A stretch of 64,000 nt of DNA from an uncultured Clostridia bacterium (GTDB taxonomy: Bacteria > Bacillota > Clostridia > TANB77 > CAG-508), in the NCBI GenBank assembly GCA_944393565.1, contig CALYAM010000002.1, positions 129,992-193,991 on the forward strand, given 5' to 3'. Below, piece by piece: positions 15,917 to 38,949 of this stretch. Numbering within the stretch: the stretch's first letter is position 1; every line of letters starts with the position of its first letter. The position numbers and the translations under genes are program-made. The notes under the pieces are model-generated. The model searched no databases and was not told where the DNA came from. It saw only the letters and a list, made by a program, of their open reading frames with translations.

Positions 15917-15995
15917 ATTTTATATATTCTTAGGAGTGTTTGTTAAAAATACTATATTATATAAAGAAAAAGCTGATTTTCCCATGCAATTAAAA

Positions 15996-16030
15996 GAAGG
16001 TATCCTAATAGGACACCTTCTTTTTTCTGT
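15996..16030 (+). terminator. rho-independent terminator (gaaggtatcctaataggacaccttc followed by a T-run)
   Basis: 6-9 bp stem gaaggt/accttc followed by tttttt. Lies downstream of the XRE gene and marks the left edge of the 1.6-kb duplicated segment. Confidence 0.55.
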
Positions 16031-17648
16031 TTTAGGACAATCTTAGTTTTATTTTTTTACTTTTTCTTTAGTACCTTTTTTTGTATTAGTACTATTCCTG
16101 TTACTAGCATTATACTTGCTACTATTCCTACTATGTAATATATTGTATTTCCTTCATCTCCTGTTGGATTATACATCGTTACTTCTGATACCCCTGTGTC
16201 TCCTTCTTTATCTCCACTTCCTGGTACATAGTTCCCTGGTATGCTCTCTTCATCTCTTCTTCCTACTTCGTTTATTCTGCTTATTATTTCTACTTCATTT
16301 ACATAGTTTAAATCATCGCTTCCTCCTACTGCTAGTATCTTACTTAATGTCATCGTTATTTCTTCTGTACTCTCTCCTGGTTCTAGTTCTTCATATAGTT
16401 TTTCTGTTGCCTCTACTGCTAATATTCCTCCTTCTATCTTCTCTTTTACTTCCCCTTTTACTATATTTGTTTCTACTCCTTCTCTCCAGCTTCCATTCTT
16501 ACTTGCATCAAATCCTAGTTTACCTGGGTAGTCATACACTTTATTTGCCCTCGTTGTTATTATTTTGTGTTGATTGCTTCCATACCTTTCGTCTCCTTCA
16601 AAATAGTTATACAACGTGTCTTTTTCTCCTCGGTTTTCTACCCTTATTTTAAAGTCTACTTCTAATTCTGCCCCATTTATTAACTCGTCATCTAGTTCTA
16701 TTTCATATGACCCATTTACTTCTTTTAGTCCACTGTTTATTCCGTTGCTTGTGTCTATTAATGTTATTCCTCTGTTGCTTATCTTTATTCCATTTACCTC
16801 TTTTATTGCTACTAGTTTTGATATCGGTCTTTTTATTAGGCCTAAGTTTACTTTGTGCCCTGGTCCTTCTTCTTTTATTCCTATTATCATTTCTTCTTCT
16901 GTGTCTGCATACATCCATGTGTTCCTTAGTAATTCTTCTTTGTTATTCCCTGCTAGTATTTCTCCTTTTTCATTTGTTTGCTCTACTGAGTAATTTATTA
17001 CTTCTAGTCTCCTATCTTTATTGTCTTTCGCACTTGATGTGTTTTCTCCATACCCTACATATGTTGTTGATTTATAGTCTTGCCCATTTAAGTTTATTGT
17101 CTTTTCTGTTTCTCCATATCTGAACCTTACTATATATCTTCCTGGTACATATCCTGTAAATATATATTCTCCTGTTCCTACATCTACTCCTCTTTCATTT
17201 TCATGTAGTTTTCCTCTTCTGTCCATATAGCTTACTTCTCTTCCTCCTGTTTCCATCTCTTGCCATATGTATTCATATTCTCTTCCTTCTATATTTACTA
17301 GTTCTATTAGTTGTACTATTACTCCACTTTTTAGTTCTTCGTTTTCTCTTCTTATTCCGTCTCCTATGTTTACTCCATCCATGTCTTGCCCTGTCACCAA
17401 GTCTTCCCACACATACCCTGTCATGTTTCTTTCTCCTCCTAAATGTAGGTTTAGTCCTGGCGCTCTGTCTGTGTCGTCCTCGTATGTTTCTACATATGTT
17501 TCCAATGTACTTATATCTATATTCCCTGGTTCAGAGTTCGTATCTATTAGCCCTTCTGGGGTTGTGTATCCTGTTATTTCTGTTATTGTATATTTCTCTC
17601 CTAATATTACTCCTCCATTTTCATCTTTTCTTACTTGATATTGTACAT
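16030..17648. repeat. Copy 1 of a 1619-bp perfect direct repeat, identical to 29422..31040 (3' part of the 1637-aa surface protein gene)
   Basis: A constant offset of 13392 is seen across all internal sub-ORFs, which have identical translations. I checked the ends base by base: identity starts at 16030/29422 and ends at 17648/31040. Confidence 0.9.
16057..17648 (-). pseudogene. 5'-truncated paralogous fragment of the 1637-aa surface protein, holding the C-terminal ~530 codons including the sorting signal and lacking the signal peptide
   Basis: The 482-aa ORF is identical to the C-terminal part of the protein at 29449..34362. Upstream the identity stops at 17648, inside the coding region. Beyond that the sequence matches the leader/promoter region of the second surface-protein gene (38751-38810). 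Confidence 0.75.
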
Positions 17649-17700
17649 TTTTGTAATATTTTGGCCATATTTTAATTGTATATCTTTTATGTAAATTTTT
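17641..17700 (-). promoter_or_regulatory. promoter/operator-like element, about 85% identical to the leader of the 1376-aa surface protein gene (38751-38810)
   Basis: Shared sequence ttttgtaatatt..catattttaatt.tata..ttttatgtaaa, containing TTTACA-N15-TAAAAT on the minus strand and the palindrome ATATT(GT)ACA-TTTT-TGTAATAT. Confidence 0.5.
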
Positions 17701-17713
17701 TAAGGAATAAAAC

Positions 17714-17750
17714 TAAAAAAATCCAACTCTTATCGGGCTGGATTTTTTCT
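17714..17750 (-). terminator. rho-independent terminator downstream of the AI-2E transporter gene
   Basis: Hairpin atccaactcttatcgggctggat flanked by an A-run and T-run. A near-identical hairpin follows the large surface protein gene at 29392-29414. Confidence 0.55.
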
Positions 17751-17793: not shown

Positions 17794-18921
17794 TTAGATT
17801 TTTTCGGAATTTAGTTTTTTGTTCCTTTTATATTCTATATAATCTGTAACAATAATTTTAATTACTGTAATAACAGGTACAGCTAAGAACATTCCAAGTA
17901 CACCAAAATATGCTCCTCCAACTGTCACAGCAAATATAACTAATAATGGACTTAGAGTTAATGAATTACCCACAATTTTAGGGTTAATTATATTTGCATC
18001 TATTTGTTGAAGTATTATAATTACAATTCCTGTCCAAAGAGCTTGTGTGAATCCTCCTGTTAAAGCTGTTATAATAAGTGTAATTGCAACTGCTATAATT
18101 GCCCCAAAATACGGAATTATATTGAATAGTCCTATCATAAAACCTAATAGTATGGCATATTTGACATTCATTATTAGCATTGCAACAGAAAGTATAGTTC
18201 CAATTACAATGCTGTCAATAATCTGACTTGAAATAAATTTATAAAACACTTCATTTGTTTTCGAAAAATATTTTCCAATATTATAGCAAACTCTTCTACT
18301 AAACATGGCTTCTGTAACTCTGTTTATAAATTTTAATATTTGTGTTCTTTCTAATAAAATATATATTGATACAACAATTGTAACAAAGAAACTGAAGATA
18401 CTATTTACAATTCCTATTGCACCTTTTACATAATTTATAATATTGTCTATGCTAAACCATTTCTTTATATCAATTTGTTCTAAGTTATGGATTATTTCTT
18501 TTGCACCTATTTGATTTAAAAGTGAATCACTAGGCTGGTTCTCTACGTATTCAGTTACATTTTTATAATAGTTTGGTAAATTTGTTGCCAAGTCTATAAG
18601 GCTTTTAGATAGTGTTGGTAATACAACATTAAATAAAATTAGTAATATTAAAAAGGCTATTAAATATGTTATGGCAACAGCTAAAGTTCGTGCTTTTTTT
18701 TGTATTATTTTTCGTTTTGACCTACATAATGCTTTTTCAATTCGCTTACATGGAAAATAAAAAATATATGCAACTAGAACTCCAATTAGAAATGGTGTTA
18801 GTATAGATATCAAATTTCCAAAAAACGAAGCAACTTCTGAATAGTTGTCAAACAGTTTGTATGCTATAATAGCACATACTACAAAAATAAAAACTTTAAT
18901 CCAATTTTTTTCTTCTTTCAT
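17794..18921 (-). CDS. AI-2E family transporter (PerM/YtvI-like permease)
   Basis: 375 aa; 8 TM segments; typical AI-2E (UPF0118) architecture. Confidence 0.75.
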   Translation of the reverse strand: MKEEKNWIKVFIFVVCAIIAYKLFDNYSEVASFFGNLISILTPFLIGVLVAYIFYFPCKRIEKALCRSKRKIIQKKARTLAVAITYLIAFLILLILFNVVLPTLSKSLIDLATNLPNYYKNVTEYVENQPSDSLLNQIGAKEIIHNLEQIDIKKWFSIDNIINYVKGAIGIVNSIFSFFVTIVVSIYILLERTQILKFINRVTEAMFSRRVCYNIGKYFSKTNEVFYKFISSQIIDSIVIGTILSVAMLIMNVKYAILLGFMIGLFNIIPYFGAIIAVAITLIITALTGGFTQALWTGIVIIILQQIDANIINPKIVGNSLTLSPLLVIFAVTVGGAYFGVLGMFLAVPVITVIKIIVTDYIEYKRNKKLNSEKI

Positions 18922-18936
18922 TTTTTACCTCTATTT

Positions 18937-19692
18937 TTATATATTTATATCAAGTTCAACAGGGCAGTGATCGCTTCCCATCACATCTGAATGAATCTTA
19001 ACATCTTTGATTTTATTTTTTATACTGTCAGATACAATAAAGTAATCAATTCTCCATCCTATATTCTTTTCTCTTGCTCTCCCCATATATGACCACCAAG
19101 TATATTCATTTTCTTTGTCTGGGTACAAGTATCTATATGCATCTGTAAATCCATTTTCAAGTAGAGTTGTCATTTTTTCTCTTTCTTCATCTGTAAAGCC
19201 TGCATTTCTATGGTTTGTTCTAGGATTTTTCAAATCAATCTCTTTGTGTGCCACATTTAAGTCTCCACATAAAATAACAGGTTTTTTTTCATTTAAGGCT
19301 TTCAAATAACATCTAAAATCTTCTTCCCACTTCATTCTGTATTCTAGCCTTGTTAACTCTCTTTGCGAATTTGGTGTATAGCAATTTACCATGAAGAAAT
19401 TATTGTATTCTAATGTTATGATTCTCCCTTCATTGTCATGCTTTGCTATATTCATCCCATATCTTATTTTTTCTGGCATAATTTTAGTAAATATTGCTGT
19501 GCCAGAATATCCTTTTTTTTCTGCACTATTAAAATATGAAAAATAGCTAGGAAAATTTATTTCAAATTGAATAGGTTGCATTTTTGTTTCTTGAATACAA
19601 AAAACATCAGCATTCTGTTTATTAAAAAATTCATCAAAGCCTTTTTTATATATGGCTCTTAATCCATTTACATTCCATGTAATTAATTTCAT
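18937..19692 (-). CDS. exoA: exodeoxyribonuclease III
   Basis: 251 aa; MKLITWNVNGLRA, QETK and the C-terminal SDHCPV are typical of Xth/ExoA EEP-fold nucleases. Confidence 0.9.
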   Translation of the reverse strand: MKLITWNVNGLRAIYKKGFDEFFNKQNADVFCIQETKMQPIQFEINFPSYFSYFNSAEKKGYSGTAIFTKIMPEKIRYGMNIAKHDNEGRIITLEYNNFFMVNCYTPNSQRELTRLEYRMKWEEDFRCYLKALNEKKPVILCGDLNVAHKEIDLKNPRTNHRNAGFTDEEREKMTTLLENGFTDAYRYLYPDKENEYTWWSYMGRAREKNIGWRIDYFIVSDSIKNKIKDVKIHSDVMGSDHCPVELDINI

Positions 19693-19898
19693 TTATACAC
19701 TCTTTTCCAATTTTTATTATACAAGTCGTTTAGATTCTTGTCAATGTATTGTTAGTACAGTAGGCAAATCTTTTTATCTGTTTCCAATTTAACTGTGTTT
19801 ATCATTTTTGCGTTATGTTATTTTTTTATATAGAAAATTTAATTTTCATATATAAAAAGCACTTTAAAGTGCTTTTTGTATAATCTATTTAAGATTTA

Positions 19899-20954
19899 TT
19901 ACATTTGGTTAAAATATACGTTTCCTCCTATATTTACACCTGATGCGGTTCCAGCAGCTCTAAAAGATAAGTAGCTGTGATTTCTTTTTCCATTTAATGC
20001 ATCAAGCACTGCTTGCTTAACATATGATGCATAATTACCATTTAGACGTTTTCTCCAATGATTGTCAATTGAATAGCAAAACTGTCCTTGTGACATATAC
20101 TGGCTTAGTGGGTCTGATCCCCTGCTTTTCCATTTGCTACTTACTGTTCTATTACATGCTGTTGTTATAACTGCAAGTGCTCCTTCATAACTTGAGCTAC
20201 ATTCTTGAGCTGTTATTGCACAAAGCAAGTCTAAATCTGCTTCTGAATAGCTCCATGTTCCATTTCCGTAGCTTATTGCTGTTGTTCTTCTTCCATTTCT
20301 TGAAACTGTTTGTCTTTGAACTTGTACTACTCTTGTTACAGGTTCTTTAATTATTTTCGAAGATATTTCTGTTCTTTCAATCTCAGCATCATTTTGATAT
20401 TTTACTTTATATGTTACTTCCTTAATACCATTTTGACCTGCTGTAAGCACTTGGTTTTGTGTTTTTGCAGCTCCATTTGAAACATCTTTTGTAACAGTTT
20501 CAAATGGTATTTCTTCTTGAACTACTATTATTTTTTCTACTATTGGTGCATAGTCTTTTAATAGCTCATCAATTCCTTTTTGCTCTTCTGTTTTCGCAAT
20601 TTCTTGTAATACTATTTCTTCCTTTGAAATTGTGATTGTTTTATCTTCGCCAAGTTCTTCTTCCAAACTTGGGTAAATATGTTCCTCTTTTGATAGTAAA
20701 ACATGATTTTCTTCTAATATCTCTGATACTTTTGTTTTACTAGTAAGTATTTGAACAGTTTCTCCATCGCTATATTTAATTTTTACTGTGTTTACTTTAT
20801 TATTTGAAGCAAATGCTACTGCACCAAATACAAATATAACACATATACTAAGCAATAAAATCTTTTTTAGTGAAACAGATGCCTTATCATCTTTTCTCAT
20901 AAAAAGTAATTCCTCCTTTGTTTTACAGGCTTTTATTTTTGTCGTAAAACACAT
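19899..20954 (-). CDS. cell wall hydrolase with N-terminal DUF348/G5-like region and C-terminal SleB-type (hydrolase_2) domain
   Basis: N-terminal signal/TM; the C-terminus (EADLDLLCAITAQECSSSYEGALAVITTACNR...) resembles the catalytic domain of the SleB/CwlJ spore cortex-lytic enzymes. Confidence 0.65.
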   Translation of the reverse strand: MCFTTKIKACKTKEELLFMRKDDKASVSLKKILLLSICVIFVFGAVAFASNNKVNTVKIKYSDGETVQILTSKTKVSEILEENHVLLSKEEHIYPSLEEELGEDKTITISKEEIVLQEIAKTEEQKGIDELLKDYAPIVEKIIVVQEEIPFETVTKDVSNGAAKTQNQVLTAGQNGIKEVTYKVKYQNDAEIERTEISSKIIKEPVTRVVQVQRQTVSRNGRRTTAISYGNGTWSYSEADLDLLCAITAQECSSSYEGALAVITTACNRTVSSKWKSRGSDPLSQYMSQGQFCYSIDNHWRKRLNGNYASYVKQAVLDALNGKRNHSYLSFRAAGTASGVNIGGNVYFNQM

Positions 20955-21156
20955 TTATAATTATACTACCATTTAGAAATTTTGTCAAATTTTAGGGAAG
21001 TACGGCTTTTAGCTGCTTTTTCAATGCATGTCCTACTAATCTATATATATGAAGCTCATTTTAAAATTATTACTTTTTTTAAAATTTTTTTCTATTGTAT
21101 ATATTTTAAAAATATGCTATTATATTTATTAATTATTATTAAGGAGGTTTTATAAT

Positions 21157-21711
21157 ATGTGGTGGGTTTTACTAGCAATAGTCTTAGTCTTAATTCTTGT
21201 TGTTGTTAATATCTATAACAGCCTCGTAAACTTAAGGCAAAAAGTAAAAAACGCATGGAGTCAAATAGAAGTACAATTGCAAAGAAGGTTTGATTTAATT
21301 CCAAATTTAGTCGAAACTGTAAAAGCTTATATGAGCCATGAACAAACAACTTTAACAAAAATAGCTGAACTTAGAACATCTTGGGCAAGTGCAAATTCTG
21401 TTGCAGAAAAAGCTAAATTAGATGATGAGCTTTCAGGTGTTTTGAAAACTATTATGGCAGTTTCTGAAAATTACCCAGAATTAAAATCTAATCAAAATTT
21501 TATGCAGTTACAACAAGATTTAAATGAAACTGAAAATAAAATTTCCTTTTCAAGGCAATTTTATAATGATACAGTAACAATGTACAATACGAAATTGGAA
21601 GTAGTACCTTCTAACATAATTGCTTCTATATTTCATTTTAAACCTGAAGAGTTATTTAAAGTAGAAAATGAAGAAGCAAGGAAAAGTGTAAAAGTAGATT
21701 TTAACAATTAA
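21157..21711 (+). CDS. lemA: LemA family protein
   Basis: 184 aa; N-terminal TM and the conserved LemA region NLRQKVKNAWSQIEVQLQRRFDLIPNLVETVK. Confidence 0.85.
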   Translation: MWWVLLAIVLVLILVVVNIYNSLVNLRQKVKNAWSQIEVQLQRRFDLIPNLVETVKAYMSHEQTTLTKIAELRTSWASANSVAEKAKLDDELSGVLKTIMAVSENYPELKSNQNFMQLQQDLNETENKISFSRQFYNDTVTMYNTKLEVVPSNIIASIFHFKPEELFKVENEEARKSVKVDFNN

Positions 21712-21715
21712 TTTA

Positions 21716-21752
21716 AAAGGATTGAGCAGTTTTAAGTTCAATCCTTTTATTT
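21716..21752 (+). terminator. rho-independent terminator after lemA
   Basis: Perfect 10-bp inverted repeat aaaggattga...tcaatccttt followed by ttatttaaa. Confidence 0.6.
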
Positions 21753-21776
21753 AAAGTATCTTTCATAAAAAAGTTT

Positions 21777-22574
21777 TTATATGTTAAATATTTTTTCTGT
21801 GTTTTGATATGTTATTTTCGCTACATCTTCTATTGATATTTGTTTTATCTGTGCTATTTTCTTTGCAGTATATTTTAAATTACTAGAATCATTTCTTGTA
21901 CCTCTTACCGGTTCTGGAGCTAAATATGGACTATCTGTCTCTATTAATAGTTTTTCAATTGGTACTTGTTTTATAATTTCATCTGCATTTTTTGCATTTT
22001 TGAATGTACAAGCTCCTGCAAGTGAAATATAATATCCCAATTTTAATGCATCTTTTATTAGTTCTAAATTTAGCTGGCAACAATGAAATACACCTTTTCT
22101 TTTGCATGGGCACTTCTTTAAAATTGCAATAGTATCTATATAGGCGTCTCTTGAGTGAATTACAATAGGCATATTAAGTTCATTTGCAAGTAAAATTTGT
22201 TCTTCAAAATATTTTTTTTGAAGAATTTTATTTTCCCTATTCCAATAATAGTCTAATCCAATTTCGCCTACTGCCACTACTTTATTGTTAGACAAACATA
22301 ATGCTTTTATTTCATTTATTGAAGTGGTTTTTTCGTCTATTATGTCATTTGGTGATATTCCACAGGTTGCATACATATTATTCATGCTTTTTGCTATTTC
22401 TATTGCTTTTCGAGAAGATTCATAATTATAACCCGCAATAATTACTTTTGTAACACCCTCTTTATGTATTTTTTTAAACACTTCATCTCTATCGCTATTA
22501 AATTTTTCATCATTATAATGTGCATGTGAGTCAAAAAATTGCATTTTTTCACGTTCCTTTATATTTTTATTCAT
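21777..22574 (-). CDS. tatD: TatD family metal-dependent DNase/hydrolase
   Basis: 265 aa; FDSHAHYND and GEIGLDYYW motifs. Confidence 0.88.
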   Translation of the reverse strand: MNKNIKEREKMQFFDSHAHYNDEKFNSDRDEVFKKIHKEGVTKVIIAGYNYESSRKAIEIAKSMNNMYATCGISPNDIIDEKTTSINEIKALCLSNNKVVAVGEIGLDYYWNRENKILQKKYFEEQILLANELNMPIVIHSRDAYIDTIAILKKCPCKRKGVFHCCQLNLELIKDALKLGYYISLAGACTFKNAKNADEIIKQVPIEKLLIETDSPYLAPEPVRGTRNDSSNLKYTAKKIAQIKQISIEDVAKITYQNTEKIFNI

Positions 22575-22944
22575 ATATCATAGTAACATATGCAGTAGCA
22601 TATTGTTTACAATGTGAAATTGAAATATCAATACTATGTATTCTGTTTTCAAACTCTACATCATGAAATATAATATATGGTTTACCAAATTTATCGTTTT
22701 TTATTTCTGCTTGTTTCCAATTTAGTTCAAATTTGTTTTCTAAAAGCACATACACTGCTTTAAATACAGCCTCTTTTGCCGCAAATCTTGCAGCATAATG
22801 TTCATATTTTGTATTTTTTTTGTTTTGGCAATATTCTATTTCTCCATCAGTGTATATTTCTTTTAAAAATCTTAATCCCGATTTTTCTATTGCATCTTGT
22901 ATTCTGTTTATTTCTATAATGTCTGTTCCACACGCGATTTTCAT
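22567..22944 (-). CDS. acpS: holo-[acyl-carrier-protein] synthase
   Basis: 125 aa; GTDIIEINRI 4'-phosphopantetheinyl transferase motif. Confidence 0.85.
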   Translation of the reverse strand: MKIACGTDIIEINRIQDAIEKSGLRFLKEIYTDGEIEYCQNKKNTKYEHYAARFAAKEAVFKAVYVLLENKFELNWKQAEIKNDKFGKPYIIFHDVEFENRIHSIDISISHCKQYATAYVTMIYE

Positions 22945-22958
22945 GCCATGTCATTCCT

Positions 22959-34476: not shown

Positions 34477-37400
34477 TTATCCTCTTAGTACTTTTTTATT
34501 TATAAAGTATATCCCTGTTGATAATACTATTAGTATTACTATTCCTAATGTTACATACATTATTTCTCGTCCTGTTTTTATCCCTAGTAATACGTCCGCT
34601 GATGACATGTCATCTTCTCCTTGTACTTTGTTCCCTTCTCTTGAATCTCTGTCTCCTATTTTTTCTTCATTGCTTGTTTCTGCTATCTCTGCTACATTAT
34701 TTATTATTCCTACATTCTCTTCTGTCATATTCTTCCTTAGTACTAGTTTTATTTCTTTTTCTTCTCCTGGTTCGATTTCTATGTCTTTTAGCTCGCTATT
34801 GTACAAGTTCCCATCTTGGGCTTGTATCCATGTCCTATTTAGTTCTGTACTAAATATCATTTCTTGTGGCATGTAATCTACTATGCTCTTTACTCGTCCT
34901 CCTATTTCTCCTTCATTTTTTATCCTTATTTTGTATTCTATTAATACTACTGTGTCTTTTATATATTTTTTGTTTATATCTGTTTTGGCTATTTTGCTTC
35001 CTTCTTCATATTCGTATTCTTTTGTCCCTTCTCGGTTCTGTACTATTATTTTACTTACCTCTTTTTCTAAACTCATATCAAATACTGGGATTCTAACTAA
35101 TCCTATATTTATGTGTTGTATGTTTTCTTCGCTTACCTCTATTACATCTGTTATTCCTATTCCTGCTCCTCCTTCTATAGCACTTGAGTTTACTTCTATT
35201 TCCCCTGTCTTTCTATATTCAGTTACCTTATATTTGTTCTCTTCATATTTAAATATTACTTGGTATTCTCCTTTTTCTATTCTTCCTATTTCATAGTTCC
35301 CTTTCTCATCTGTTGTCGTTTTCCCTTTTTCTTCCCCTTTTCTATCTACTAAGCTTACCTCTATATTGCTTATTAGTTCTTCTCCTTCTTCTTTTATTCC
35401 ATTTTTGTTTTCATCTAACCATGCTGTTCCACTTATTGTATACTTTTCTGTTTCTCCTGGTTCGCTTGGGTTACTTGGGTCATTTGGGTCACTTGGGTCA
35501 CTTGGATCACTTGGGTTGTCTGGATCACTTGGGTTATCTGGATTATCTGGGTTCTCCTCTCCATTTTCATTCTCTATTGTAATTTCCCATTCTAATTCCT
35601 CTTCCCCTACTATCATTTTTGCTATTACTTCTTTTATTTTTTCTTTTATTTCTCCTACTTCTGCTGTTATTTCACATATATATGTTTCTCCTGGATATAT
35701 TGTTGTTTGCTCTAATTCAAATGTTCCCTCACTTTGTGACATATCTGAAGTGTTGCCTTCTTTTCCAAACACTACTGATATTGGTTTTAGTTCTTCTGGA
35801 AGCTCTACTTTAACCTTAAATTCCCCTTTTTCAAGTCTTCCTACATTTTCTGCATTCATTATAAGTTTTACCATATCTCCCGCTTTGTTTGTTGTCTCTA
35901 CATTTTCTGTTCGTTTTGTTATATTTACCTCTGGTCTTATAATTGTAGATTTAACTATGTTTGATGTGATTTCTGTTTCCAAGCCATCGTATGTTGCTGT
36001 TACCTTGTTTGTAATTTCCCTTTCATATGTGCTTCCACTTAGCTTATTTGTTGTAACAATTAATGTTAATATTGCATCAGGTTCATATAACATATTTCCT
36101 ATGTTCCATGTTACAACTCTGTTTTTAGCATCATAGTTCACAGCATCTTCGATTTCTTTATATTGGTTTGTTTCTACATCATAAATAGTCATAATTGCTT
36201 TTTCATATGTCACTCCTGCTGGTAAATAGTCTTTTACTATAATGTTTTCAATTGGATCTGGTCCTTCTATTTCCGGTTCTGTTTCAGGTGGTACTTCTAC
36301 TTCATCATCTGGTTCTGGTAGTGGTTCTTCTGGCTCTGGTATTTGTTCTTCATCTTCATCTACTGGTAATAAATAGTCACTTATATTATTTACATTTATC
36401 ATATATGCTATTTGGTGTCCTTCAAGCACTTGGCTATTTTCTGCTCCAGTATTCATTATTAGCTCAAGTCTTGGTTTATTCTCTTCTGGCTTTGCTCCAT
36501 TTTCTTCTTCATTTGGTGTTCCTTCTGGTTCTTCTACTGGTGCTCCCACTATTGGTGTCTCTTCTTCTTTTTCTTCCTTTAGATTTGATGTTATTTTTGT
36601 TCTTGCTTGGTTTCCTTCTAGCTCTGCTATTATCTCTCCTTCTCCACTCTCTTCTTTGCTTGTTACATTTAGCCCTACTATTATTGTACTTCCATTCCCT
36701 TTTGCTGTTGTGCTAAATTTGCTTTGTTTCCCTTTTAGTTCTATTTCTATCTCTTTTTCTCCTTCTTCTGTTCCTTTTACTTCCGCTCTTCCTATTTCTA
36801 GTTCTGTATCAAACAATAAATTTGTATTTGTTATTTCTGCTTCTTCTATAAACTTTGGTAATTTTACTTTTACTTTCGGATTTTCATATAGTTTTGAATC
36901 TTCTTTGTTGTTTCCTAATTCTATTTTTATTTCTATTCCTTCTCTCTTTTGGTTTATGCTTTCTTTATTTGCTTCTATTTTTAAGTGGCTTATCGCTTCT
37001 TCTAGCTTCCCTTCTCCTTTTGCTTCATTCCCTTTTGCTTCTCCTTCTCCTCTTACTTCTATTTCTTCTTCTATTTTTTCTAGCTCGTCTATTTCTTCAC
37101 TTCTAATCTCTTCTTCCGCTTTTATTACTTTCCTATGTTCTATTATTAATGTCCCCTCTTCTTTTGGTTCACTTGTTTTTATTGTTATTCTTCCTTCTTC
37201 TGTTTCGTATTCTATTTTATATGCCCCTTCTTCTTCCTTACTATTTTTATCTATTTTTCCTATTTCTTCTCCTAATGCATTTTCTATTGTTATTATTCCT
37301 TCTTCTCCTAATATTTCTTTAAATCTTTTTGCTACTATTTTTGTTTCTTTATAGTATGTTCTTCCTTCTTCTCCTTTCATCTCTCCTTCTTTTGTCTTAA

Positions 37401-38607
37401 ATCTGCTCCCTTTTTCTTCTATTATTATCCCTTCTGTTATCTCTGCTTTCCCTATATGGATTTCTTCTTCTACTTTATATTCTGTTTCGTACCCTTTTGC
37501 ATACATTTTTGCCTTGTTTATTCCTTCTATTCCTATTTTTCCTCTTATTATACTTCCTCTTTCTTCTCCTATTTCTTCTTTTAATATCACTTCTATTTCT
37601 GTTTTGTTTCTCTCTTCTGTGTGGCTATAACTTTCTACTTCTATCTTACTCTTGCTTTCTATTTCTTCTTTCCCTTCTCCTTCTCCCTCTTTTGTTCCAT
37701 ATTCATATGTTATTATGTATCTGTCTTCTCCTCCTTCTTTGCTATATACTTCTCCTTCTATTTCTTCATTTCCTACTTCTATTTCTAGTTTCCCTTCGTT
37801 GTATTCCCATTTTACCTCTACTTCTTCTTTTCTCTTTCCATTTGTCATTTCTGTTCCTTGGCTGCTTACTCTTACTTCTTTTGCTTCTTCTCCTTTATAT
37901 CTTGGTACTTCTATTTCTATTCTTGTCTTCTTTATTGGTAGCCCTTCATTTTTCCTTCTTATTACTATCTCTTCTTCTATTATTGTTCCTTCTTCTTCTC
38001 CTTCTTTATATCCTCTCTTTGTTATTATTTCCCTTTCTGCTTCTATTTCTGTTTTGCTTTCCCATCCTATGTTTATTATTACTTCTTTGCTTATTTCTAC
38101 TTCTTCTCCCTCTTCTGTTACATATGTTCCTGTTAATTTTATCTTGCTGTTTTTATTTATCTCTTCTACTTTTAGTTTCTCTCCTATTTCTACTTCTACT
38201 GGTACTTCTAATATTGCCTCTGTTCCTTTGTTTATTTGTTTTAACTCTAATCTATTTCCTTCTTTTTTCCCTATTATTCCGTTTCCCTCTATTTCTCCTT
38301 TTATTCTATAATTCCCTTCTATTATTTCTATTACTCCATTTTTCATAAATCCGCTTTCTTTTACATTTATGTGCATGCTAATTACTGGTGTTTCTCCTAC
38401 ATCATATACTTCTGAATGTACTTTCTCTCCTTCTTTTTCTATGTATGCACTAAATTCTACATTCTTGTGCTCTGTCTTCTCATCTTGACTTTCTAAGTTA
38501 CCTTCCGCATAACTTACCATGCTATTTCCTATTAGTATTAGGTTCCCCGCTGTTAATACAACTACTAGTATGCTTGCTATTATTTTTCCCATTATCTTTC
38601 TTTGCAT
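34477..38607 (-). CDS. giant E/K/G/I-rich cell-surface protein (1376 aa) with SdrD-B-like and DUF11-like domains, a DNPS/DPSD proline-rich linker and a C-terminal sorting-like signal
   Basis: Signal peptide. Very long low-complexity Glu/Lys/Gly-rich region. YTISGTAWLDENKNGI...TDEKGNYEI is an SdrD_B fold. The C-terminus IKTGREIMY + TM + NKKVLRG parallels the downstream gene. The two genes are 114 bp apart and likely co-transcribed. Confidence 0.85.
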   Translation of the reverse strand: MQRKIMGKIIASILVVVLTAGNLILIGNSMVSYAEGNLESQDEKTEHKNVEFSAYIEKEGEKVHSEVYDVGETPVISMHINVKESGFMKNGVIEIIEGNYRIKGEIEGNGIIGKKEGNRLELKQINKGTEAILEVPVEVEIGEKLKVEEINKNSKIKLTGTYVTEEGEEVEISKEVIINIGWESKTEIEAEREIITKRGYKEGEEEGTIIEEEIVIRRKNEGLPIKKTRIEIEVPRYKGEEAKEVRVSSQGTEMTNGKRKEEVEVKWEYNEGKLEIEVGNEEIEGEVYSKEGGEDRYIITYEYGTKEGEGEGKEEIESKSKIEVESYSHTEERNKTEIEVILKEEIGEERGSIIRGKIGIEGINKAKMYAKGYETEYKVEEEIHIGKAEITEGIIIEEKGSRFKTKEGEMKGEEGRTYYKETKIVAKRFKEILGEEGIITIENALGEEIGKIDKNSKEEEGAYKIEYETEEGRITIKTSEPKEEGTLIIEHRKVIKAEEEIRSEEIDELEKIEEEIEVRGEGEAKGNEAKGEGKLEEAISHLKIEANKESINQKREGIEIKIELGNNKEDSKLYENPKVKVKLPKFIEEAEITNTNLLFDTELEIGRAEVKGTEEGEKEIEIELKGKQSKFSTTAKGNGSTIIVGLNVTSKEESGEGEIIAELEGNQARTKITSNLKEEKEEETPIVGAPVEEPEGTPNEEENGAKPEENKPRLELIMNTGAENSQVLEGHQIAYMINVNNISDYLLPVDEDEEQIPEPEEPLPEPDDEVEVPPETEPEIEGPDPIENIIVKDYLPAGVTYEKAIMTIYDVETNQYKEIEDAVNYDAKNRVVTWNIGNMLYEPDAILTLIVTTNKLSGSTYEREITNKVTATYDGLETEITSNIVKSTIIRPEVNITKRTENVETTNKAGDMVKLIMNAENVGRLEKGEFKVKVELPEELKPISVVFGKEGNTSDMSQSEGTFELEQTTIYPGETYICEITAEVGEIKEKIKEVIAKMIVGEEELEWEITIENENGEENPDNPDNPSDPDNPSDPSDPSDPNDPSNPSEPGETEKYTISGTAWLDENKNGIKEEGEELISNIEVSLVDRKGEEKGKTTTDEKGNYEIGRIEKGEYQVIFKYEENKYKVTEYRKTGEIEVNSSAIEGGAGIGITDVIEVSEENIQHINIGLVRIPVFDMSLEKEVSKIIVQNREGTKEYEYEEGSKIAKTDINKKYIKDTVVLIEYKIRIKNEGEIGGRVKSIVDYMPQEMIFSTELNRTWIQAQDGNLYNSELKDIEIEPGEEKEIKLVLRKNMTEENVGIINNVAEIAETSNEEKIGDRDSREGNKVQGEDDMSSADVLLGIKTGREIMYVTLGIVILIVLSTGIYFINKKVLRG
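35461..35560. repeat. tandem 9-bp repeat (about 10 units of cacttgggt / ggatcactt variants) inside the 1376-aa gene, encoding the NPD/NPS/DPS linker
   Basis: Seen directly: ttgggttacttgggtcatttgggtcacttgggtcacttggatcacttgggttgtctggatcacttgggttatctggattatctgggtt. Confidence 0.85.
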
Positions 38608-38750
38608 CTTTTATATTCCTCCTTGTATTATTTTCGACTTAATACTACTATTTTCTTTATTTTCACATGTTTTTTAGTCTTAGTCAATATATATTTTTTT
38701 AACTTTTTTTTCTATTATCTTATCGCATACGGAAATTACTGTTTGCTGAA

Positions 38751-38810
38751 ATATTACATTTTTGTAATATTGTATCCATATTTTAATTATATACTTTTTA
38801 TGTAAAGTTT
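38751..38810 (-). promoter_or_regulatory. putative promoter plus palindromic operator (ATATTACA-TTTT-TGTAATAT) for the surface-protein operon, in a divergent intergenic region
   Basis: Perfect 8-4-8 palindrome at 38751-38770. TTTACA-N15-TAAAAT on the minus strand. A homologous copy is fused to the truncated paralog at 17641-17700. Confidence 0.5.
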
Positions 38811-38949
38811 TCAATGGTTTTTCCTACTTTTTTCGCTTTAAAAGGAAAAAATGAATAAATTTTGTAACATTTTTTTCCTTACTTAGTACAATATACTAGT
38901 AATGTTTTATTTTTCATTACATATATTTATTCTAAGGGGGCTGTGTATT

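Follow-up and report, generated by a model that had tools for sequence, protein, structure and literature searches.

We analysed 64,000 nucleotides of contig CALYAM010000002.1 (positions 129,992 to 193,991 of the forward strand) from assembly GCA_944393565.1 of an uncultured Clostridia bacterium (TANB77; CAG-508), a stretch referred to below as the window, in which an exact 1619-bp direct repeat, named here X, forms the 3' end of a large surface-protein gene and recurs at a second locus. Read along the coding strand, the region comprises minC, a divergent small gene, the promoter P_A, geneA, a 114-nt spacer, geneB with the repeat copy X2 at its end, the terminator T2, an 11.3-kb housekeeping block (S block, 17794–29111, minus strand), the terminator T1, the promoter-like sequence P', the repeat copy X1 and the terminator T0, beyond which lie a convergent gene for a 63-aa HTH protein, a VTT-domain gene, rpoB and rpoC. 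The S block holds, in coding order, a split spoIIE, genes for an acyl-ACP thioesterase and a WG-repeat protein, an unknown gene, acpS, tatD, lemA, a G5 protein gene, xth and an AI-2E transporter gene, and it is syntenic in many related metagenome-assembled genomes (MAGs). Locus 1 denotes the interval from minC to spoIIE and locus 2 that from the AI-2E transporter gene to the HTH gene. To our knowledge, the host group of uncultured gut Clostridia is known from MAGs only. The proteins of the window were matched exactly to public assemblies (ENA, Logan), yielding many independent metagenome contigs of 99–100% identity; all of the matching sequences are metagenome assemblies.

Both surface-protein genes of locus 1 lie on the minus strand. 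The first in the operon, geneA (34477–38607), encodes a 1376-aa protein with a Glu/Lys-rich N-terminal half and DUF11 and SdrD B-like domains, and geneB (29449–34362) a 1637-aa protein with a signal peptide, DUF11 and SdrD B-like domains, a C-terminal hydrophobic anchor and a KKVLKKK tail. The domains are Pfam matches (DUF11, SdrD_B), and the signal-peptide-like N-terminus and the C-terminal hydrophobic segment with its basic tail, present in both proteins, were read from the sequence. The C-terminal motif is YNPTG in geneB and GIKTG in geneA, in place of a canonical LPXTG. Homologues in Clostridia MAGs are annotated as 'SdrD B-like domain-containing protein', and both products may be regarded as putative adhesins. 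A paper on TANB77 'pilins', considered for its relevance to these genes, concerns unrelated Tad-type pilins. The promoter P_A (38747–38816, minus) shows TTGAAA (38814–38809), a 17-nt spacer and TATAAT (38791–38786), followed by a palindrome of 8-4-8 structure, ATATTACAAAAATGTAATAT, at 38751–38770. Further into the leader stands a second promoter-like site (38659–38687, minus; TTGACT, a 17-nt spacer and TGtGAAAAT), so that two such sites lie in tandem 5' of geneA (38659–38816; about 5560–5720 in L120); both are kept in the sister species described below, and the palindrome between them is not conserved. Folding of the 114-nt spacer between geneA and geneB revealed no terminator structure, so the two genes most likely form a single operon driven by P_A. 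Hence, the sequence that a first-pass annotation of this DNA had taken for the promoter of 'the other adhesin gene' is the operon's own promoter. An Rfam scan of the whole window gave 0 families at the gathering score, with no known riboswitch in the leader or at the fusion described below, and no tRNA genes occur in the 64 kb.

Comparison of the window with itself showed that positions 16030–17648 (X1) and 29422–31040 (X2), both read on the minus strand, agree over 1619 bp with 0 differences and that a mismatch follows directly beyond each end; the claim of a perfect repeat stands, and the match extends at neither side. An exact repeat of 1.6 kb in a 64-kb window of 30% G+C cannot have arisen by chance. 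At locus 1, the intact geneB ends in X2, which comprises the last 1592 nt of the gene and 27 nt of 3' untranslated region, and X1 carries the same sequence at locus 2, that is, the final 530 geneB codons with the stop codon and these 27 nt, in frame with the C-terminus of the 1637-aa protein. X1 had been placed 13.4 kb upstream of the gene, but this is true of plus-strand coordinates only; since the genes lie on the minus strand, the copy stands 13.4 kb downstream in the direction of transcription. Likewise, the repeat was said to begin in the U-tract of a terminator, which describes a T-tract of the plus strand, whereas on the coding strand X stops 27 nt past the stop codon, at the A-tract preceding the T0 and T2 hairpins. 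Past this end the two copies share 8 nt of weak similarity (NAGAAAAA), running through an AGAAAAA tract that opens all three terminators: T0 (15992–16024), a bidirectional hairpin between X1 and the HTH gene (−20.5 kcal/mol, z −5.4); T2 (29384–29421, minus), directly after X2 (−17.2 kcal/mol, z −6.2); and T1 (17715–17749, minus), after the AI-2E transporter gene. Each consists of a strong predicted hairpin followed by a U-tract, and T1 and T2 are intrinsic terminators about 90% identical to each other.

The same repeat search recovered, next to the X pair, a 68-nt pair (17636–17703 and 38747–38814) of 84% identity, in agreement with the promoter-like similarity of about 85% reported at the switch point. 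It contains P' (17649–17705, minus; TTAAAA at 17703–17698, a 17-nt spacer and TACAAT at 17680–17675). Therefore, the fusion of X1 to a promoter-like sequence stands, but its description as foreign does not, P' being a diverged copy of the geneA-geneB operon promoter. A third pair links T1 (17719–17745) and T2 (29390–29416), with 3 differences in 27 nt and 31 of 34 nt matching over a longer core; it is the sole pair of this pattern in the window, where 0 would be expected by chance, and searches of the window for further copies of the palindrome or of the T1/T2 terminator returned only the two known sites of each. As locus 1 is arranged as P-...-X-T and locus 2 as T-P-...-X, the likeness of T1 and T2 makes the locus-2 copy circularly permuted. 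Reading copy 1 in frame confirmed that it has neither a start codon in context nor a signal peptide: the frame, bounded by a stop codon in the T1 tail, crosses P' and enters geneB at codon 1108. Inside X1, an open reading frame (ORF) of 455 aa (16057–17424, minus), annotated as 455 or 482 aa by gene callers in other assemblies, begins at an internal ATG (17424) with AGGAGG 10 nt upstream; it has no signal peptide, keeps the C-terminal membrane anchor and is probably a pseudogene.

Several lines of evidence establish that the second copy exists. All four junctions of X recur in independent assemblies from many samples. Passage from P' into X is seen in at least nine samples (L001, L002, L005–L010, L024) and from X into T0 in at least eight (L001, L020–L029), in each case with different assemblers; the 5' part of geneB joins X in L011, L015 and L030–L033, and X joins T2 in L002, L005, L011, L015 and L031. 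Moreover, five contigs bridge the full repeat between unique flanks, two from P' to T0 (L001, L024) and three from geneB to T2 (L011, L015, L031), while unitig-type contigs break at the boundaries of X, as expected of a true repeat. Of four scaffolds longer than 50 kb with the locus, scaffold_54, the one displayed, has the gene order of the window, and another, scaffold_86 (ERZ28614869), is 99.995% identical to the window. One contig (L002; ENA ERZ26779121 NODE_1164) measures exactly 13,392 bp, the start-to-start period of the repeat, and closes on itself from the AI-2E gene through P', X and T2 to spoIIE; the path from P' through X to T2, also found in L005, is not contained in the order of the window and probably reflects a loop in the assembly graph, almost certainly so for L002, which a screen for plasmids or viruses would nevertheless pick up as a small circular element. 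In the sample of L002, this contig has a coverage of 3.75 against 3.43 for a single-copy flank contig. The ratio of 1.09, from this one sample, fits the 1.12 expected if X is present twice and the intervening block once. That the genome holds a single X, and that misjoining or duplication during assembly or scaffolding made the other, might be argued from the exclusively metagenomic origin of the matches, from the absence of the species from the species-representative collection scanned, from the inability of short-read assemblers to phase a 1.6-kb repeat and from the aberrant path of L002 and L005. Nevertheless, the junctions peculiar to the second copy were assembled independently, as were those of geneB, both copies are bridged, and one of the four long scaffolds reproduces the order, so that the artefact which the first-pass annotation wished to see excluded is excluded for practical purposes, and we regard its probability as negligible. 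A scan of JGI metagenomes for the P' junction gave two matches with flanks unlike the window, which we read as chance.

The junction itself suggests how the fragment came about. At 17638–17659 (minus), the left arm of the leader palindrome is joined to geneB codon 1108 through a common ATGTA (ATATTACAAAAATGTA followed by CAATAT). The window reads AAAAATGTA and then CAATATC, where the intact leader continues from AAAAATGTA into ATATTTTAGC and geneB at the start of X passes from ATATATGTA into CAATATC; the microhomology amounts to the 5 nt of ATGTA, or to 9 of 11 nt if a 2-nt gap is allowed. The switch point falls inside the palindrome, so the microhomology junction described earlier was borne out by this comparison, and folding predicts that the fused version no longer forms the palindrome hairpin. 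What locus 1 has without a counterpart at the window's locus 2 (31041–38754, minus) is a stretch covering the leader, geneA and geneB codons 1–1107, in total 7719 bp with the common ATGTA counted once.

This missing stretch is present at locus 2 in other strains. Two contigs from different projects, L003 (ERZ28614790) and L004 (ERZ24773478), lead from the AI-2E gene through T1, a P'-type promoter, an intact palindrome and the full leader, including the second promoter-like site missing from the window's locus 2, to a geneA of 1367 aa and on into geneB. As the longest exact stretch common to P' and P_A spans 17–19 nt, too short for a chimeric join at usual k-mer sizes, locus 2 must hold a complete operon behind P' in some strains. 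L003 and L004 have private SNPs (single-nucleotide polymorphisms) in common, about 10 in the adjacent 1.9 kb, where no other lineage is as divergent. Comparison of the assemblies thus shows that locus-2 occupancy differs among strains, these two carrying the complete operon, the window and at least nine other samples the 1.6-kb remnant; what separates the two states is the 7,719 bp from the ATGTA of the leader palindrome to the ATGTA(CA)ATAT of geneB. The junction of P' and X is identical in at least nine samples, which points to a single origin. Because the same P' drives the complete operon in L003 and L004, the fragment is best read as an internally deleted second copy of the operon rather than as a 3' cassette relocated behind another promoter; that it is a recombination product, as had been proposed, stands. 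Neither geneA nor its L003 counterpart had an exact match in a protein cluster table, a look-up of the geneB variant P0015 from NCBI gave no record, and a search for geneA homologues returned relatives of at most 55% identity and no strain variants.

The sister species indicates which locus came first. In the nearest species of the genome collection (MAG GCA_944392885.1, about 67–78% amino-acid identity), minC and the small gene are followed by geneA (1376 aa), geneB (1643 aa) and a split spoIIE, and further on the AI-2E gene is followed directly by the HTH gene, a two-component system and rpoB. The operon is therefore confined to locus 1, from minC to spoIIE, and locus 2 is empty, so that locus 1 is ancestral and the content of locus 2 was added in the species of the window. 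Among more distant relatives, adhesin homologues precede spoIIE in many MAGs and follow the AI-2E gene in a few. A TatD scan found that the window's own species is not among the species-representative collection, the best matches being 66–67% identical; the nearest TatD entries (at most 67%) are uncultured gut or rumen Clostridia MAGs, including Clostridium sp. CAG:245, CAG:273, Candidatus Merdicola and Candidatus Scatovivens.

The identity of the two copies contrasts with the drift around them. The 31-nt core of P_A, CATTGAAAACTTTACATAAAAAGTATATAAT (TTGAAA-17-TATAAT), is identical at 31 of 31 positions in the sister species, while P' has accumulated 6 changes within these 31 nt, giving TTAAAA-17-TACAAT. 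X shows 0 differences in 1619 nt against identities of 84% for its P'/P_A flank (68 nt) and about 90% for its T1/T2 flank; had it diverged like these flanks, by about 14%, it would show roughly 225. As the flanks drifted by 10–16% while X stayed identical, the coding part appears to have been homogenised after the duplication, and gene conversion or recent re-copying is the likely, though not proven, cause. In scaffold_54 both X copies carry the same 11 differences from the window and differ mutually only at X position 1602, and in scaffold_86 both have A at X position 1156, where both copies of the window have G. This co-variation of X1 and X2 between assemblies (11 SNPs in one, 1 SNP in the other) would fit concerted evolution, but a collapsed short-read assembly would look the same. 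Short-read graphs merge the copies of a repeat of 1.6 kb, which is then written out twice, and such collapse may inflate the identity of X1 and X2. Hence, of the proposal that 100% identity reflects a very recent event or ongoing conversion, the need for homogenisation or a recent origin stands, but this is not proven and repeat collapse may contribute. As a separate observation, X position 1602 (window 16047 and 29439), 18 nt from the 3' end of X, is an A/T polymorphism with T mostly in the T0 context and A in the T2 context, and it constitutes the sole resolved difference between copies in several samples (e.g. scaffold_54 and ERR11569302). With regard to persistence, acpS is normally essential. 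If X1 and X2 crossed over, the S block would be lost together with its acpS, so non-crossover conversion would be the only viable outcome, which would explain why the repeat persists.

Taken together, these data make it probable, in our judgement, that copy 1 is what remains of a gutted second geneA-geneB operon, shaped by duplication, homogenisation and, in the window's lineage, deletion. A copy of the operon from promoter to terminator would have been inserted at locus 2 in circularly permuted form ([T-P-A-B] rather than [P-A-B-T]), possibly by way of a circular or tandem intermediate recombining at the AGAAAAA tract common to T0, T1 and T2. Gene conversion would then have kept the coding parts of both copies alike, the short flanks P' and T1 drifting to 84–90%. 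In the lineage of the window, a microhomology-mediated deletion at the palindrome would have removed the leader, the second promoter, geneA and 1107 geneB codons. What is left would be a pseudogene with a weakened promoter, without a start codon in context or a signal peptide, its identity with the live gene being maintained by non-crossover conversion or simply reflecting a recent deletion. It could not be lost through crossover of the repeats, since the acpS-containing block would go with it. Some considerations weigh against this sequence of events. The direction of change is unproven: the L003/L004 type could derive from the window type through recombination in the 17 nt common to P' and P_A, by re-fill or by a 21-kb tandem duplication, and such an exchange would also explain why the high-identity boundary of L003 falls at the same palindrome. 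The contigs L003 and L004 show neither locus 1 of their strains nor the 3' end of locus 2. That X1 and X2 co-vary and are 100% identical could stem from collapse of the 1.6-kb repeat in short-read assemblies, position 1602, only 18 nt from the boundary, being the one site ever resolved as differing between copies. Finally, the circular intermediate is suggested by a short microhomology of low complexity.

The direction of change bears most directly on an alternative in which P'-X is the older, stable state and the 7.7 kb of leader, geneA and geneB 5' part were copied in from locus 1 or lost again, L003 and L004 representing the filled state of a landing pad or copy-number switch. P' and X would act as its left and right homology arms, and strains would alternate between one operon copy and two. 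Consistent with it, P' looks long unconstrained, the operon of L003 and that of the window's locus 1 agree to more than 99.5% except in one patch, and the boundary between P'-type and P_A-type sequence in L003 and L004 falls exactly in the palindrome of the window junction, which would be automatic if crossover took place in the last 17 nt of P' homology. Yet this alternative leaves the promoter copy on an internal gene fragment unexplained and still needs an earlier full copy with a deletion; with 17–19 exact nt inside a region of 84% similarity, the left arm is a poor substrate for RecA-dependent exchange; and the states are lineage-specific (about 10 private SNPs in the adjacent 1.9 kb) and not mixed among close relatives, which argues against frequent toggling. 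We consider it unlikely, if worth keeping in view. A bolder form, in which the P' and X arms act as a standing 'docking site' where the 7.7-kb operon body is reversibly copied in and deleted out, with the palindrome as a hotspot for both reactions, seems to us distinctly doubtful. If true, it would provide a heritable one-copy/two-copy switch, of dosage or of allele pair, for the main surface proteins, the essential block preventing loss.

Sequence variation between strains speaks to the proposal that copy 1 is a silent donor, that is, a promoter-proximal fragment storing sequence to be copied into the expressed gene. The layout is superficially similar, with a complete gene and a partial untranslatable copy, and the alleles of geneA and geneB are strongly mosaic between strains. 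Hypervariable patches occur in DUF11-type domains of geneA (35969–36554) and geneB (32369–32669), with about 190 mismatches plus indels within about 700 nt in L003 and 44 mismatches in 300 nt in L015, the rest of the operon being more than 99.5% identical between strains. Six unitig-type contigs (L034–L039) all stop at 32576–32592, at the edge of the geneB patch; no repeat explaining these ends was found in the window, and the break coincides with the allelic patch. Both patches lie outside X, which varies by at most 0.7% within the species. There is one cassette only, and it stores no alternative sequence, showing 0 differences from the expressed gene in the window and in scaffold_86 and 1 in scaffold_54, although repeat collapse could mask differences in the interior. 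Consequently, the silent or variant cassette envisaged in the first-pass annotation appears highly improbable; in the strain comparison it called for, strains do differ in the occupancy of locus 2, and the hypervariable patches lie outside X. Nor does a role for X as it stands seem much better founded, be it a truncated, anchor-only protein of 455 aa made under P' or the use of the repeats for tandem amplification of the 13.4-kb unit, and we judge this very unlikely. The internal ATG with its AGGAGG and the match of P' to a sigma-70-type pattern at 9 of 12 positions would favour a product, but without a signal peptide SdrD-like domains would remain cytoplasmic, and in P' conserved promoter positions are changed and the second promoter is gone. 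With no export signal and a decayed promoter, a functional 455-aa product is unlikely. As for amplification, the path from P' through X to T2 in L002 and L005 is what a tandem array or an excised circle would give, but assemblers also produce it from a graph loop, and the ratio of 1.09 found for L002 is in line with an intervening block present once.

Two further candidates were rejected. Site-specific recombination was considered on account of a large serine recombinase gene at 53163–54752, but nothing ties it to the ends of the repeat, and no link between the recombinase and X was found. Insertion of a mobile element between the copies was dismissed, since what lies between them is housekeeping genes whose synteny is conserved across many related MAGs. 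The recombinase (529 aa; Resolvase, Recombinase and Zn_ribbon_recom domains) belongs to a region (51703–54752, minus) where it stands next to an AAA_14/DUF4143 ATPase gene amid housekeeping genes, and which may be a small integrated element or a remnant of one. Within the S block, spoIIE (window 26777–29111, minus; L120 15316–17795) is split into ORFs of 250 aa and 522 aa, with an additional 66-aa tail ORF in other assemblies. The gene is also split in the sister species, in a different way (304, 113 and 428 aa), and this suggests that spoIIE is decaying as a sporulation gene in this lineage. The window shows, in addition, an extreme strand asymmetry, with nearly all genes on the minus strand and a plus strand rich in T (27,915; A 16,893) and in C (11,882; G 7,310).

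Large surface proteins are the likely interface of this organism with its host or diet. That their main operon occurs in one or two copies depending on the lineage, with allelic hypervariable patches, is relevant wherever strains are typed or copy numbers are derived from metagenomic data. The repeat is also a trap for short-read assembly, yielding 'circular' contigs of 13,392 bp and copies identical by construction that could be mistaken for plasmids or recent events; a documented trap and a marker of copy-number polymorphism represent its main practical value. More generally, the validation and historical reconstruction of a striking exact repeat in MAGs proved feasible from public assemblies alone.

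Among known systems, geneA and geneB resemble the SdrD B-like/DUF11, MSCRAMM-like adhesins of Firmicutes in their SdrD_B and DUF11 Pfam domains, signal peptide and C-terminal hydrophobic segment with basic tail, but they differ in lacking a canonical LPXTG (YNPTG and GIKTG instead), and their adhesive role is presumptive. Silent-cassette systems such as Neisseria pilE/pilS, the MgPa repeats of Mycoplasma genitalium and Borrelia vlsE comprise several promoterless partial copies, each differing in variable regions. Our case shares with them one expressed gene, a partial copy elsewhere without start codon or signal peptide and gene conversion as the presumed link; unlike them, it offers a single, identical copy over a part of the gene without a hypervariable patch and, atypically, with a promoter remnant. 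In its behaviour, the repeat seems closest to adhesin paralogues at alternative loci that are homogenised by intragenomic recombination. The Helicobacter pylori babA/babB/babC family occupies three chromosomal loci in a strain-dependent manner, and intragenomic exchange by recombination or gene conversion both preserves similarity in parts of these paralogues and gives rise to chimeric genes (PMC3444412, PMC4552749). Alternative loci and occupancy differing between strains are common to both cases, and in the present one the interior of the repeat is more alike than its flanks. The Bab proteins are Gram-negative outer-membrane proteins, whereas those encoded here are surface proteins of Gram-positive type with SdrD B-like and DUF11 domains; the bab loci hold complete, differing genes whose exchange alters the binding phenotype, whereas the second locus described here holds, in most strains, an identical, truncated and probably dead fragment. 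In bacterial genome evolution at large, pseudogene relics arise by microhomology deletion at palindromes, and segmental duplications are held in place by essential intervening genes. The 5-nt (9/11) microhomology junction at an 8-4-8 palindrome and the direct repeats flanking the acpS block show no essential difference from this pattern; with the repeats so placed, a crossover deletion is expected to be lethal and conversion alone would be tolerated. This would be the best-fitting category, and X would represent a fairly ordinary case of duplication, decay and homogenisation of a surface-protein gene, calling for no new mechanism.

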